Source of the DNA: an uncultured virus (IMG/VR IMGVR_UViG_3300029989_000017)
Taxonomy: Duplodnaviria; Heunggongvirae; Uroviricota; Caudoviricetes
DNA length: 20,000 nt
IMG/VR virus record: IMGVR_UViG_3300029989_000017
Strand: one strand, 5' to 3'
Positions 3,425 to 16,845 of the stretch are shown here, one piece after another; positions within the stretch are counted from its first letter, which is position 1; each line of letters starts with the position of its first letter. A program made the translations under genes and the position numbers. The notes beneath the pieces are model-generated. The model made no database searches. It was not told the DNA's origin and saw only the letters and a program-made list of their open reading frames with translations.

Positions 3425-3515
3425 AAATGCACAAAACGATTTGTGCATTTTACCACTTGTTTTCTTTACTCAATGTAGTAAAATAGTATTATCAGATTTG
3501 AGAGGAGCACACAAC
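3425..3515 (+). promoter_or_regulatory. Repeated promoter cassette P2 (palindrome, -35/-10, RBS)
   Basis: AAATGCACAAA-ACGA-TTTGTGCATTT, TTGTTT(3457)-16 bp-TAAAAT(3479), core TTTACTCAATGTAGTAAAATAG, GAGAGGAG. Confidence 0.85.
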
Positions 3516-3761
3516 ATGAAAAAGTTTTACAAGGTAGAGGGCTCACCGAGAAGAGCCTGCGCGAGAACAACGGACAACCACGAATACCACTGGGCGATCG
3601 CATACATGATAGACGGCGTGGCCGCCTCCTCGAAGGCCTTCAGGGCCGACGAAGCAAGCGCCAACAGCGAGGCCGCTCGGATGAACAGAGACCGCGGCAA
3701 CCACTATAAGGTCCTCCCCGTGATCGAGATCACGGCCGCCGAGTACAAAGCCCTAAAATAA
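3516..3761 (+). CDS. Hypothetical early protein, first gene of the P2 module
   Basis: RBS GAGAGGAG then ATG 3516 (MKKFYKVEG...); the ORF-track extension only reads through the promoter. Confidence 0.8.
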   Translation: MKKFYKVEGSPRRACARTTDNHEYHWAIAYMIDGVAASSKAFRADEASANSEAARMNRDRGNHYKVLPVIEITAAEYKALK

Positions 3762-3814
3762 TCGAGGGCGGCCTTCGGGCCGTAAGACCACAAAAGCGGG
3801 TCCCAAGTCCCGCC
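3757..3814 (+). ncRNA. Twister-like self-cleaving ribozyme, circularly permuted (P1 closed, P5-type order), copy 1
   Basis: GAGGG(3764-68), P1 CGGCC-UUCG-GGCCG, UAA(3783-85), GACC, AC, AAAA, P4 GCGGG/CCCGC with loop UCCCAAGU. Both twister pseudoknots can form (GGG:CCC and AC:GU). P2 is weak (2 Watson-Crick pairs). Confidence 0.7.
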
Positions 3815-3837
3815 GACCTGAGAGGAGAGATCAAGTA

Positions 3838-5600: not shown

Positions 5601-5606
5601 GCGCAG

Positions 5607-5696
5607 AATGCACAAAGAGATTTGTGCATTTTGTATATTGACTTATTTACTCATTGTAGTAAAATAGTATTATCAGATTCGAGAGGAGAACACACC
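5607..5696 (+). promoter_or_regulatory. Repeated promoter cassette P3
   Basis: AATGCACAAA-GAGA-TTTGTGCATT, TTGACT(5638)-16 bp-TAAAAT(5660), GAGAGGAG RBS. Confidence 0.88.
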
Positions 5697-6419: not shown

Positions 6420-6553
6420 AAACCATCATGGCTCAGCAATACCGCTACTACGTGTTCGTGTGCGCGGGGCAGATCGCCTACTTCAATGACCGCAGGGAGG
6501 CCGAGGCCTTCGCGGCCTTCAATGACTCCGAAGTCTCCGACATGGACATCTAG
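6416..6553 (+). CDS. 45-aa hypothetical protein
   Basis: AAGGAGG RBS, ATGA overlap; MKTIMAQQYRYYVFVCAGQIAYFNDRREAEAF... Confidence 0.7.
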   Translation: MKTIMAQQYRYYVFVCAGQIAYFNDRREAEAFAAFNDSEVSDMDI

Positions 6554-6651
6554 CACAAAAATCTTTGTGCACTTTGTATATTGACTTATTTACTCAATGT
6601 AGTAAAATAGGTACTATGAGAGGGCCAAGAGCCCCGAGAAGGAGAGAACAT
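6553..6651 (+). promoter_or_regulatory. Repeated promoter cassette P4
   Basis: GCACAAA-AATC-TTTGTGC, TTGACT(6581)-16 bp-TAAAAT(6603), AAGGAG RBS. Confidence 0.88.
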
Positions 6652-6888
6652 ATGAAGCAGATCAAGACTAGCACTTTCGCAGGCGGCGACGTCTCAGAGA
6701 CCACGACCATCATCACCGAGGAGGCTTACCTAGAGATCGGGCGCAAGGCCGAACGCCTTAAAGACCACGGCGCTGAGGTCACCTTCGACACACTCGAGGA
6801 CGGTACGACCAAGATCACCCGCATACTCCACGCGATCGAAGCCACAGACAACATCACCATCGTCTACACCTTCAGCGAGGAGGAATAA
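6652..6888 (+). CDS. Hypothetical early protein, first gene of the P4 module
   Basis: ATG 6652 after RBS; 78 aa; stop overlaps the ribozyme. Confidence 0.8.
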   Translation: MKQIKTSTFAGGDVSETTTIITEEAYLEIGRKAERLKDHGAEVTFDTLEDGTTKITRILHAIEATDNITIVYTFSEEE

Positions 6889-6942
6889 TCGAGGGCGGCC
6901 CACAGGGCCGTAAGACCACAAAAGCGGGTCCCAAGTCCCGCC
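6884..6942 (+). ncRNA. Twister-like self-cleaving ribozyme, copy 2
   Basis: Identical to copy 1 except the P1 tip (CGGCCC-ACA-GGGCCG versus CGGCC-UUCG-GGCCG), so variation is confined to a non-catalytic loop. Predicted scissile U/A at 6911/6912. Confidence 0.7.
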
Positions 6943-6961
6943 ACATTGAGAGGAGATCAAC

Positions 6962-7147
6962 ATGAGACAGGTTATACACTACTGGGGCGAGTATTGGGGC
7001 GAAGACGGCGCGCGGCAGATCATGACCCCTGTGTTCATAAACAAAGCGGAGTTTGCGACGTACATGAGAGCCCACAAGGACCCCGCCATCAAGCTAATTT
7101 GGTGCCAAGATAAAACACCCGCGTTTCGCGGAAATTCAAGATTTTAA
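6962..7147 (+). CDS. 61-aa hypothetical protein
   Basis: GAGAGGAG RBS directly after the ribozyme. Confidence 0.75.
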   Translation: MRQVIHYWGEYWGEDGARQIMTPVFINKAEFATYMRAHKDPAIKLIWCQDKTPAFRGNSRF

Positions 7148-9316: not shown

Positions 9317-9341
9317 TAAAAACAGAATGGAGCTATTAAAA

Positions 9342-9545
9342 ATGGGACTCAAAGAGCTTAGACTGAAGGGTGGCTTTACCCTCCACAGCCTCGCCGACGC
9401 GTCGGGCGTCAATTTCATGAAAATTCATCAGATCGAGAAGGGTCAGCGCGATATGGAGAACATCACGCTGAAGACCTCGCTGAAACTCGCCAAGGCGCTG
9501 AAGTGTAGACCCGAGGACCTGATCGACAAGGAGCCCAAAGCGTGA
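9342..9545 (+). CDS. XRE-family HTH transcriptional regulator
   Basis: GGAG RBS before ATG 9342; LKELRLKGGFTLHSLADASGVNFMKIHQIEKGQR...TSLKLAKALKCRPEDL. Confidence 0.9.
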   Translation: MGLKELRLKGGFTLHSLADASGVNFMKIHQIEKGQRDMENITLKTSLKLAKALKCRPEDLIDKEPKA

Positions 9546-10271: not shown

Positions 10272-10278
10272 CCAAAGG

Positions 10279-10374
10279 CAAGAGGTAAAATTTGTGCATT
10301 TTACCTCTTGTATTATTTACTCAATGTAGTAAAATAGGTAGTATGAGAGACCCAATTGAGAGGAGATCACCACC
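10279..10374 (+). promoter_or_regulatory. Repeated promoter cassette P5 (variant palindrome)
   Basis: CAAGAGGTAAAAT-TTGTGC-ATTTTACCTCTTG, TTGTAT(10308)-16 bp-TAAAAT(10330), GAGAGGAG RBS. Confidence 0.85.
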
Positions 10375-10894: not shown

Positions 10895-11115
10895 GCACAC
10901 TTAGAGAGGCCATTAAGGCCAACGGTCACGAGAACACGTTTATCACGATCATCATACTACGCGTCAAGGAAAACAAGCCCCTGATCAAGACCACCTACCA
11001 CTCGATGTATGGCCGAGAGCTCAACCCGATGCGCGCTGACGCGCCTGTGCTCTTCGAGTGCAAGCATGAATATATCGGCGGCGACTTTCTGCCCGCCTAC
11101 GGTATTCAGCTATGA
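10891..11115 (+). CDS. Hypothetical protein
   Basis: GGGAGA RBS; ATGA coupling at both ends; 74 aa. Confidence 0.7.
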   Translation: MSTLREAIKANGHENTFITIIILRVKENKPLIKTTYHSMYGRELNPMRADAPVLFECKHEYIGGDFLPAYGIQL

Positions 11116-11927
11116 TCGGCGCTATCATCGGAGACATCGTCGGCTCACGCTTCGAGTTTGACAACCACAGGAGCAAGAACTTCAAGCTGTTCGCCAAGAC
11201 CTGCTACTTCACCGACGACACGGTCATGACGCTCGCAGTCGCAAAGGCGCTCATGGCCGCCACGCGCTACGGGGCTAACATCGGCGAAGAGACCGTGAAG
11301 TGGATGCAGACGCTCGGCCGCAAGTATCCTAATCGCGGCTACGGCAGGGCGTTCAAAGAGTGGCTCCAAGCGGCAAAGCCCGAGCCCTACAACAGCTTCG
11401 GCAACGGCGCGGCCATGCGCGTCAGCCCCGCAGGAGAGGCCGCGCATGATCGTGGCGGCGCTGTTCGATTATCCGCGTCCGTAACAAAAGTCACACACGA
11501 CCACCCCGAGGGGCTGAAGGGCGCGGAGGCCGTGGCCGTGGCCATATGGCTCGCACGTTGGCGCAGTGAGACCAAGGGCCTAAGGCTGAGGCGGCGCTTC
11601 ACAAAAGAGGAGCTCCGCAAGCGGCTCAGCGAATATTATGACCTCAACTTCACCATCGACGAGATCAGGCCCACGTACAAATTCAACGAGACTTGTCAGG
11701 AGACCGTGCCGCAGGCGATCGAGGCCTTCCTCGAGTCCACATCATTCGAGGACGCCATACGTATCGCCATATCGGTCGGAGGCGACAGCGATACCCTAGC
11801 CGCGATCACAGGCTCGATCGCCGAGGCATACTACGGCGTGCGCGATGACTTCAAGGTCAAGGCCCTGTCCTATTTAGACCCCTACCTGCGCGACATCTAC
11901 TACGAATGGGAGGCGTTTGTGAAATGA
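11112..11927 (+). CDS. ADP-ribosylglycohydrolase (DraG/ARH family)
   Basis: GAIIGDIVGSRFEF, FTDDT, SFGNGAAMR, THDHPEG and GGDSDT motifs all present, including the metal-binding acidic residues. Confidence 0.95.
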   Translation: MIGAIIGDIVGSRFEFDNHRSKNFKLFAKTCYFTDDTVMTLAVAKALMAATRYGANIGEETVKWMQTLGRKYPNRGYGRAFKEWLQAAKPEPYNSFGNGAAMRVSPAGEAAHDRGGAVRLSASVTKVTHDHPEGLKGAEAVAVAIWLARWRSETKGLRLRRRFTKEELRKRLSEYYDLNFTIDEIRPTYKFNETCQETVPQAIEAFLESTSFEDAIRIAISVGGDSDTLAAITGSIAEAYYGVRDDFKVKALSYLDPYLRDIYYEWEAFVK

Positions 11928-12097: not shown

Positions 12098-12303
12098 TAC
12101 GCAAGTGTAAACACTGTGATGCCGCCGCCTACGTTCGCAAAGAGCGACAGTCACCTTCCCGGGGGCGCGGCAACGGATACTATCACCCGATACACAGTTT
12201 CTACGTGTGCTGTCCGCTCTGCTACCAGATGAGCACATGGTACAACTCCTCGCGCGCTCTAGCTATCGCGGACTGGAATAGAAAGCAAAAAATGCACAAT
12301 TAA
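12094..12303 (+). CDS. Lar-like (restriction alleviation family) Zn-binding protein
   Basis: GAGGAG RBS, GTGA overlap; CKHC...FYVCCPLC...ALAIADWNRK matches the Lar-family pattern CxxC...VxCxxC...AIxxWNxR. Confidence 0.7.
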   Translation: MIRKCKHCDAAAYVRKERQSPSRGRGNGYYHPIHSFYVCCPLCYQMSTWYNSSRALAIADWNRKQKMHN

Positions 12304-12388
12304 TTTTGTGCATTTTGCCTATTGACTTCTTTACTCAATGTAGTAAAATAGGTACTATGAGAGACCCACTACGAGAGGAGCAAACGCC
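12289..12388 (+). promoter_or_regulatory. Repeated promoter cassette P6
   Basis: AAAATGCACAA-TTAATT-TTGTGCATTTT, TTGACT(12322)-16 bp-TAAAAT(12344), GAGAGGAG RBS. Confidence 0.88.
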
Positions 12389-15138: not shown

Positions 15139-16845
15139 TCACCTCTCGTATGCGAAGACACCCGCGAGCTCCACGTCCGACGTGAAGACCCCCGAGGCCT
15201 CGATCTGGTTTATAAACTCACCCGAGAGCTCAACCCCCGAAGTGAAGACGCCGTCTCCGCCGAGCTCGTACACGAAGTCAGCATAAAGCTGTATGTCGGC
15301 GTTCTCGAACGCGACGATCTTGCGCCCCTGAGCCTCTAGGCGGCCCTCTGCGAGAAGATAAGCCCTGCCGACGTGTTTTGCTACACCCTCGGCTATAAGC
15401 GCGCCTAGGCCGCCGAGGGCGGCCGCGCCGACCACGATATAGACTGCGGAGCCTGAGAGCGCGCCGTCGCCTGATAACGTAGCTGTCGCCGCAAGGACCC
15501 GCGTACCGTGGGCCGCAACGGTCTCCGAGCCCGCGAGCACCGCACCGCCATGTATGACGCGAGAGCCTGTCGCTGTGAGCGTGCTCGCGCCGCTGAGCAC
15601 TACGGACGAATGCGAGGGCGCTATGCCCGCCGCCGATAACGTGCTTGCGCCGCTGAGCTGAGCTGAGCTGTTCGTTTTGCGAAGGCCCGAGGCCGTCAGC
15701 CCGCCTGCGCCCGTGAAGACCTTAGCACCGACCTTGACGACGGTGCCCGCGGCCGACATCGTACTCGTACCTGCAAGGGCCGCCGAGCTGAGTCGCACAC
15801 GTTTGCCATTCGCTGTGATCAAGCCTGCGCCCGTGAGATGCGCCGAGACGTTTGAGGCAGGCACCACTCCTGAGGCCGTCAGCGCGCCTGTGCCTGCGAG
15901 AGCCGCCGAGCCTATCTTTACTCGCGTGCCTGCGGCAACGAACGCTCCTGCGCCCGAGAGGGCCACAGAGCTCTTCAGAATGCGTTTGCCCGCGGCAGTG
16001 ATCGCACTCGTACCTGTCAGGGACACCGAGCCTGCTGTTTTGCGCTTGCCTGTGGCCGAGACTGCGCTCGTACCTGTCAAGGCCACTGCGCCGATTTCGA
16101 CGCGCTTTCCCGTCGCTGTATACGTGCTCGTTCCTGCGAGAGCCGCCGAGCCTTTGAATATCTGCTTGCCTGTGGCCGCTAACGTGCTTGCGCCAGTTAG
16201 CGCCGAGGAGCCGAGCCTTACACGCACGCCCGAGGCCGTGATCGTGCTTGAACCCGAGAGGGCCGCCGAGCTGTTCGTCTTGCGAAGACCTGTTGCTATG
16301 ACCGAGCTCGTACCCGCGAGGGCCGCCGAGCCCTTCTGAATGCGTTTGCCTAGGGCTGTGATCGCGCCTGCGCCCGCCAGAGCGGCCGCACCGAGCTCTA
16401 TGCGTTTACCCGAGGCGGTGATGGCGCTCGTGCCTGCGAAGGCCACAGCGCTCTTCAGGATACGTTTACCCGCCGCTGTGGCTGTGCTCGTACCCGTCAG
16501 GGAGACAGAGCCCGACTTCTTGATTCCACCGATGGCCGACAACGTAGACGTGCCCGCGAGGTCCGCGTCTCCGAACTTTACAGGGTCGCCTTGGCCCGCC
16601 ATGAGCTGAGCCCACGTCAGGCCGCCAATCTGCATCCACGAGTCGCCGTCTAAGACGGTCCATGTACGTGGGTTGACAACGCCGACCGCGGTGACGGCGC
16701 TCGTGCCTGCGAGAGCCGCGGAGCCATCCTGCATTGGGGCGTAGGCGTCACGCTCTAGGGCTGTTGCAACGTCGTCGACGGGAAAGTGCTGAGTGATCGC
16801 CGCCCTCGACAGTAGTCTAGCGCGGCCGAGAAACCCACCTTGCAT
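15139..16845 (-). CDS. Gly/Ala/Ser/Thr-rich 20-aa repeat virion protein (fibre-like)
   Basis: AAGGAG RBS; many tandem units like KGSAALAGTSSVIATGLRKT; located in the late operon. Confidence 0.8.
   Translation of the reverse strand: MQGGFLGRARLLSRAAITQHFPVDDVATALERDAYAPMQDGSAALAGTSAVTAVGVVNPRTWTVLDGDSWMQIGGLTWAQLMAGQGDPVKFGDADLAGTSTLSAIGGIKKSGSVSLTGTSTATAAGKRILKSAVAFAGTSAITASGKRIELGAAALAGAGAITALGKRIQKGSAALAGTSSVIATGLRKTNSSAALSGSSTITASGVRVRLGSSALTGASTLAATGKQIFKGSAALAGTSTYTATGKRVEIGAVALTGTSAVSATGKRKTAGSVSLTGTSAITAAGKRILKSSVALSGAGAFVAAGTRVKIGSAALAGTGALTASGVVPASNVSAHLTGAGLITANGKRVRLSSAALAGTSTMSAAGTVVKVGAKVFTGAGGLTASGLRKTNSSAQLSGASTLSAAGIAPSHSSVVLSGASTLTATGSRVIHGGAVLAGSETVAAHGTRVLAATATLSGDGALSGSAVYIVVGAAALGGLGALIAEGVAKHVGRAYLLAEGRLEAQGRKIVAFENADIQLYADFVYELGGDGVFTSGVELSGEFINQIEASGVFTSDVELAGVFAYER

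Follow-up and report, generated by a model that had tools for sequence, protein, structure and literature searches.

What a self-cleaving ribozyme might do between two genes of a phage operon is the question raised by a short sequence that occurs twice in the window analyzed here, a 20,000-nucleotide stretch of phage DNA from an uncultured virus (IMG/VR IMGVR_UViG_3300029989_000017). A plus-strand block of small genes spans 1.6–13.2 kb of the window, with endolysin- and holin-like genes on the minus strand at 13–15 kb. The second occurrence (copy 2, 6884–6942, with the motif itself at 6886–6942) and the first (copy 1, 3757–3814) both lie in the small-gene block, among the following features:

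3516–3761, plus strand: first open reading frame (ORF) of the copy 1 unit, 81 aa, unrelated to ORF 6652
3757–3827, plus strand: copy 1 stop-twister-ribosome-binding site (RBS) joint, with TAA 3759–3761, GAGGG 3764–3768, predicted cut 3783/3784 and RBS 3820–3827
6553–6608, plus strand: promoter-like repeat of copy 2, putative in function, with an inverted repeat (6553–6570), −35 box TTGACT (6581–6586), 16 nt and −10 box TAAAAT (6603–6608)
6652–6888, plus strand: first ORF of the copy 2 unit, 78 aa, its TAA (6886–6888) overlapping the P2 3′ strand
6887–6890, plus strand: P2 3′ strand, AAUC, in which solely U6889 and C6890 form Watson–Crick pairs
6891–6895, plus strand: GAGGG, containing the general-base G6891 and the T1 strand
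6896–6910, plus strand: P1 hairpin, 6 bp with an ACA loop, −10.3 kcal/mol, predicted to stay on the 3′ end of the upstream product
6911–6913, plus strand: U^AA cleavage site, predicted cut 6911/6912
6914–6917, plus strand: P2 5′ strand, GACC
6918–6919, plus strand: possible T2 strand, AC
6924–6941, plus strand: P4 stem and L4, 5 bp including the invariant G-C; L4 holds a U.A pair, CCC-A of T1 and GU of T2
6948–6955, plus strand: Shine-Dalgarno sequence of copy 2, GAGAGGAG
6962–7147, plus strand: downstream ORF, 61 aa, ATG 6962, the first among eight further tightly packed small genes that run to 9090

Judged by its sequence, copy 2 is a genuine type-P5 twister motif (Rfam RF02684) in an arrangement of a known kind. 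The Rfam covariance model matched it at 6888–6940 (33.7 bits, E 0.00096) and matched copy 1 at 3761–3812 (34.5 bits, E 0.00059), over the full model (1–58) and with both scores below the gathering score of 37.6 bits. No third twister appeared in the window, where Rfam at E ≤ 1 gave just these two matches and a loose pattern did likewise. The first-pass annotation had described 6884..6942 as twister-like and as a repeat of copy 1 except at a still-paired P1 tip. The RF02684 match bears this out: starting at the stop codon upstream and running through P4, the two copies are the same save for that tip, they have the RBS in common, and the tip forms 6 bp closed by an ACA loop in copy 2 (CGGCCC-ACA-GGGCCG vs CGGCC-UUCG-GGCCG in copy 1). 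We rejected a compensatory change as the source of the tip difference, which consists of a new loop plus one additional pair. The same DNA is present at 100% identity in three other assemblies (L122, L124, and L125), and a fourth (L131) carries the same DNA with one gap, outside the ribozyme; the repeat is therefore no assembly artefact.

The pairing scheme for copy 2 was taken from the accessible part of PMC5408937. Its elements follow in the order P2′-GAGGG-P1-UAA-P2-P4, with P1 and P4 as closed hairpins and the ends open at P5, and both the minimum-energy and the centroid fold contain the 6-bp P1 and the 5-bp P4. All catalytic residues are present (G6891, U6911, A6912, and A6913), the catalytic role of the GAGGG G being described in the accessible part of PMC6154101, and the cut proposed at first pass, 6911/6912, agrees as a predicted site with the U6911/A6912 expected of a twister-P5. 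For T1, G6893–G6895 are complementary in sequence to C6930–C6932, with A6892 and A6933 also in place for the A.A pair. P2 has two Watson–Crick pairs followed by A.C mismatches, below the three to four pairs expected of type P5. For T2, the pairs A6918-U6936 and C6919-G6935 could form if P2 covers four positions, but RC is absent from both position 3 and position 4 past UAA in all nine related sequences with the same short P2, so the T2 register in the window copies is uncertain. P1 is weak in both copies (−8.7 and −10.3 vs a median of −14.2), and the minimum-energy fold of copy 1 in a 97-nt context pairs GAGGG with upstream coding sequence.

The first-pass annotation had further claimed that the genes around the two copies are unrelated and that the layout around them is the same, and both points hold in the window. 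BLASTP gave no alignment between the two upstream ORFs or between the two downstream ORFs. Each copy follows a promoter-like repeat (at 3465 for copy 1) and an ORF of about 80 aa (78 and 81), overlaps the TAA of that ORF, and precedes an RBS, with ATG 3838 after the copy 1 RBS (3820–3827) and the copy 2 start codon 50 nt past the predicted cut. Searches with ORF 6652 returned no PHROG, no viral locus and, among proteins of 42–137 aa, only itself; ORF 3516 had no PHROG and no relatives among the near-length proteins searched, and ORF 7158 had none in viral contigs. The best matches of ORF 12389 were weak (32% to Bacillus phages, 45% and partial to a Butyrivibrio virus). Our searches recovered no relative of the window's phage: in viral contigs the promoter pattern led to the window's own DNA (L139 and L140) and to one other match (L141), apparently inside a coding sequence on an unrelated contig. 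A cultured-phage match of 36 nt inside a tail gene (E 0.1) was treated as chance.

Several other features of the window deserve mention. Inverted repeats lie just upstream of the −35 boxes of the promoter repeats, at 3426–3450, 5604–5627, 6553–6570, 10278–10311, and 12289–12316, and are candidates for a terminator/promoter like those of the PeSL cassettes or for an operator; a repressor-like HTH gene is found at 9327–9545. Between 9095 and 9315 lies a gap free of ORFs in which a 9-nt motif recurs several times, in direct and inverted orientation, on both sides of an AT-rich middle; the gap resembles an origin of replication, a packaging site or an array of protein-binding sites. The early-type block includes an ADP-ribosylglycohydrolase gene (11112–11927; phrog_6572, E 3e-57), which possibly counters host ADP-ribosylation defences, and at 15139–16845 on the minus strand a 568-aa protein, built of some 14 or more repeats that are each 20 residues long and have a period of 60 nt, is probably a tail fibre or shaft protein.

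Beyond the window, a twister-P5 pattern matched 119 loci of viral contigs and 33 of genomes, and a narrower one matched 19 of metagenomes; after duplicate removal, these gave 230 sequences in 108 groups (defined by shared 60-mers), the window included. A P1 filter of at least 5 bp kept 165 of the 171 first-scan sequences and dropped six, and pair counts were made by script. A looser detector yielded 272 twisters, with at least two copies in 44 of the 108 groups and, within the sampled DNA, a single copy in 64. Since the patterns fixed GAGGG, UAA, and L4, conservation of those motifs among the matches is not independent evidence. The T2 pairing was not fixed, and it is found in 217 of 218 threadable sequences (A-U in 119, G-C in 81, and G.U in 17), while compensatory T1 swaps (GAGGA with GUUCC, GAGAG with GUCUC) occur in Rfam matches outside the pattern, among the 22 listed. 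P2 has at least three Watson–Crick pairs in 198 of the 230 sequences, and P2 type is shared in 83–92% of within-group pairs vs 24% between groups. All 442 loose matches fall on one strand per locus, with none in 238,895 shuffled bases, and the largest array holds 14 copies, almost one per gene (L101).

Twister-P5 arrays are also found in contigs binned with a wide range of phyla, among them Eubacteriales, Chloroflexota, Vicinamibacterales, and Saccharimonadales (L142–L174), which are probably prophages or co-binned phages. In addition, a pistol ribozyme and below-cut-off twister-P1-like matches lie in gene blocks that also contain twister-P5 copies (L074, 1778–1841; L126, 641–693 and 4381–4433; L135, 2114–2166).

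The placement of these twisters is non-random, between a stop codon and an RBS. Gene calls came from a crude heuristic of RBS-led ORFs, with the upstream gene uncalled for 54 of 265 twisters; by these calls, an ORF stop lies within 10 nt of GAGGG in 104 of 164 cases vs 2.9% at random positions, and an RBS with a start follows within 60 nt past L4 in 143 of 156 vs 23.5% in the control. At least one stop-flush copy is present in 78 of 105 independent groups, and the commonest stop offset is that of the window copies. At this offset, 49 of 54 stops are TAG, compared with 118 of 489 in neighbouring genes, an excess explained by the G of TAG serving as the third P2 pair; the remaining five, all TAA, are by inspection the form with the short P2. 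The distance from predicted cut to start is 40–65 nt in 181 of 199 cases. In the window as in other phages, the twisters are flanked by co-oriented phage genes of variable identity, with the ribozyme on the coding strand. The stop-ribozyme-RBS slot is thus real and general, and the portable piece is the ~73-nt stop-twister-RBS joint, not the promoter-ORF block.

A separate observation concerns the segment before the RBS. In 23 twisters out of 212, drawn from 17 of 101 groups, at least 5 nt of this segment are complementary to the downstream product at its 5′ end, compared with at most 18 twisters and 16 groups in 500 control runs. Examples come from L007, L018, L044, L068, L076, L105, L123, and L136, and the complementarity is absent from the window copies. 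Such a segment might complete a 5′ hairpin once the RNA is cut, or might serve as a switch.

These data bear directly on the larger unit envisaged at first pass, in which promoter, first ORF, and ribozyme travel together and self-cleavage splits off and tunes the first cistron. Within the window both copies do sit at a first junction, a position held by 5 of 28 junctions (chance about 0.03, with n = 2 and the copies not independent), and in other loci the gene before the 5′-most twister has an upstream gap of >40 nt in 39 of 51 cases, compared with 215 of 364 comparable background genes; yet a sigma70-like match is present in just 8 of those 39. The promoter-like repeat itself stands out in a pattern search of the window (six matches in the plus-strand block vs 0.01 expected), but four of the six lack a ribozyme and two have one, which the first-pass annotation overlooked, as it did the two-pair P2. 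Two other promoter units have a first ORF of 75 or 81 aa and no ribozyme, the first junction has no ribozyme in three of the five multi-gene units, and in three of the five it is an overlap or 4 nt. Nor are the promoters of the two copies each other's closest relatives, being 65% alike and each nearer a ribozyme-free promoter (84% and 81%). Among the 211 called genes upstream of a twister, 85 follow another twister and 44 are internal, so that for 129 of the twisters, spread over 44 of 86 groups, a place behind a first gene is impossible; of the remaining upstream genes, 73 come after a gap of >40 nt and 9 stand at the edge of a locus. The upstream ORF has a median of 93 aa and falls between 60 and 100 aa in 74 of 175. 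Arrays such as that of L101, with its 14 copies, refute the first-cistron unit as a general rule. What survives of that proposal is the slot between stop and RBS and, in the window, the position after the first gene; the promoter and first-ORF part does not hold as a rule, and we consider the proposal as a whole improbable.

The window copies themselves belong to a rare form, AYC-GAGGG...UAA-GRCC...GGUCCCAAGUCC, of which we have 11 sequences in nine groups, both window copies included, in which P2 has 2 bp, an A.C mismatch is conserved and the canonical T2 pseudoknot is often missing. GRCC was imposed by the metagenome pattern, but the viral scan that yielded L074 and L107 was unbiased; one metagenome match (L121), with a P1 of 3, one P2 pair, and none of the shared features, was excluded. 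The short-P2 pattern had no match in genome contigs, and two further scans of viral contigs gave no additional sequence. The distinguishing positions of the form go beyond what the pattern imposed: the pyrimidine at −2, not fixed by it, always pairs, and the A at −3, present in 10 of the 11 sequences, covers every one of the 10 A.C cases found at that pair in the 230 sequences, including four groups with the stop codon farther upstream. The T2 position of L4 is U in 11 of 11, compared with 62% otherwise (135 of 218, P ~0.013 over nine groups; a second tally gives 136). At the canonical position, an RC for T2 is found in none of the nine non-window members, and four groups have none anywhere outside P4. 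A T2 at positions 1–2 after UAA was rejected: there the nine short-P2 G's all face U, whereas among canonical sequences 81 of 98 have their G opposite a C. Some short-P2 copies share operons with canonical twisters (L126 and L127) or lie near a pistol ribozyme (L074).

Departures of this kind could mean that the window copies are degenerate, near-inactive twisters kept as a hairpin spacer with an RBS or as an antisense terminator. Their scores below the cut-off, 2-bp P2, and weak P1 would suit such decay, as would the P4 hairpin and its A-run, which in each copy score as a terminator-like site when read on the minus strand (two among 23 such sites, against 11.8 expected from shuffling), and the identity of the copies may stem from recent duplication. 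The same departures nevertheless recur across nine independent groups in which P1 and P4 are paired and the second P2 pair covaries, and eight of the nine other short-P2 sequences, each scanned under its own locus, pass the Rfam cut-off (38.2–47.6 bits), the ninth (L107/L135) giving no P5 match at E ≤ 0.05. The A-run before P4, moreover, is absent from the other short-P2 sequences, and we hold decay to be a poor explanation, with a small probability of being right.

Published work, in the portions available, is mixed on what a short P2 should do: P2 imperfections are tolerated but mean cleavage drops from 0.76 to 0.53 with one imperfection in T2, the pseudoknot of two pairs (PMC11662667), and an altered P2 length has been suggested as a possible disruption of the active site (PMC5408937). 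As P2 flaws are tolerated and a T2 flaw lowers cleavage, activity of the short-P2 form is likely but may be reduced; the window copies probably still cut, perhaps more slowly, and T2 may be rewired through A(−3) and the U of L4. A bolder suggestion is that AYC-GAGGG...UAA-GRCC...GUCCCAAGUCC constitutes a distinct structural subtype of twister, in which one nucleotide of the T2 strand is lost and T2 consists of a single C-G plus a contact between A(−3) and the invariant L4 U. The result would be a slower, partial cutter, used by phages as a rheostat at selected junctions (the first, for instance), where part of the message would stay uncut; we offer this tentatively and think it doubtful. Should the short-P2 form prove active, the twister consensus would be wider, and such copies can drop under the Rfam cut-off.

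For the role of the joint, the reading we favour, and think probable, is that the type-P5 twister provides an intercistronic cut site in an early-type phage operon of small genes, on a mobile joint, with its effect exerted through RNA stability and uncoupling. Twister cleavage leaves a cyclic phosphate on the upstream piece and a 5′-OH on the downstream piece, and the products expected at first pass, a first cistron ending in a hairpin and a downstream mRNA with a 5′-OH, agree with this established chemistry. On this model the nascent mRNA would fold P1, P2, P4, and the pseudoknots and, by the chemistry of the family, cut itself at U6911/A6912. The upstream cistron would be freed with a 3′ end of stop codon, GAGGG, P1 hairpin, and a U bearing the cyclic phosphate; the downstream mRNA would run from a 5′-OH through 12 nt without pairing into the P4 hairpin and then the RBS, its AUG 50 nt from the end. 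The two pieces would then decay and be translated separately, and the ~73-nt joint would be copied within the genome and dropped at gene junctions. The core residues, the T2 and T1 covariation, the slot statistics, and the single-strand placement support a cut site, which is weakened by the sub-cut-off scores, the 2-pair P2, and the misfold of the copy 1 GAGGG in its 97-nt context.

Unmasking of the RBS by cleavage was rejected as the effect: across 199 copies the median unpaired probability of the RBS is 0.54 uncleaved vs 0.56 cleaved (63 better and 44 worse), and for copy 2 it is 0.54 in both states. Because predicted RBS accessibility is hardly altered by cleavage, an effect on RNA decay and on uncoupling of the neighbouring genes is likelier. 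We also dropped the idea of an excised or circular mRNA between the copies, as two promoter repeats lie between them. The direction of any effect of cleavage would depend on the host, to go by the accessible parts of two sources: cellular RNases degrade the glmS mRNA once it is cleaved (PMC6765202), while expression goes up with RiboJ (PMC8750797).

Mobility of the joint invites a further interpretation, in which it serves mainly as a PeSL-like recombination joint, allowing phages to acquire, lose, and exchange small genes that bring their own RBS and clean ends, cutting being secondary. Between L101 (1–6346), with 14 twisters in 6.3 kb, and the related phage L078/L029, most shared segments are bounded by twisters, and the intervening genes differ. 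This fits recombination, as do the homogenisation of copies within genomes and, in the window, flanking ORFs that are unrelated and had no relatives in the searches made. However, the breakpoints come from one phage pair and are expected at gene borders under selection regardless, covarying pseudoknots are unnecessary for recombination, and the 64 of 108 groups with a single copy in the sampled DNA are hard to square with it. Exchange as the primary function thus seems unlikely to us, and we retain the intercistronic cut site.

The twister class itself reportedly goes back to Roth et al. in 2014. RiboJ, which invites comparison below, is not known to be a twister. The present arrangement is not new: in the accessible part of their paper, Perreault et al. 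(2011; PMC3088659) report prophage hammerheads in clusters, flanking single genes or short blocks, with cleavage both in vitro and in E. coli, and a 2019 review, as far as its accessible text goes, relays that polycistronic processing has been suggested for bacterial twisters, with the purpose undefined (ref. 148 via PMC6765202), and calls the part that self-cleaving ribozymes play within bacteria and phages largely elusive. What may be new here is the rare short-P2 form and the TAG stop that supplies a P2 base, since the literature covered (titles and abstract openings) describes neither. The fixed geometry and the interchangeable ribozyme types per operon make for a precise, testable model in a small natural joint.

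Set against known systems, as represented in the accessible parts of the sources cited, the window copies are closest in build to RF02684 twisters, sharing the permutation, GAGGG, U^AA, P1, P4, L4 GUCCCAAG, and T1 pairing (PMC5408937, PMC6154101); they differ in a P2 of two pairs plus A.C, where the reviewed consensus has 4 bp and most phage copies here have three, in a T2 of A-C/G-U, if formed, and in their scores of 33.7 and 34.5 against 37.6. With the prophage hammerheads they share self-cleaving ribozymes placed between variable phage genes and proposed to cut transcripts into gene- or operon-length mRNAs, whereas here the ribozyme is a twister-P5 in fixed geometry (stop over P2, start ~50 nt past the cut) across ~100 groups, the window has one copy per unit, and cleavage is predicted from sequence. 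Pistol ribozymes are phage-associated too (PMC4604425). The PeSL cassettes of T4-like phages likewise are short repeated joints between unrelated small genes and proposed exchange points (PMC4122927, PMC2839356), and an inverted repeat lies upstream of the window's promoter repeat too, but PeSLs are terminator/promoter DNA elements without catalysis, and an exchange role here comes from one phage pair. Finally, the RiboJ insulator also sets a self-cleaving ribozyme, a hairpin, and an RBS before a gene and gives a defined 5′ end (PMC8750797), though it is synthetic and sits in a 5′ UTR, whereas the twister joint lies between cistrons and is predicted to leave RBS accessibility nearly unchanged.
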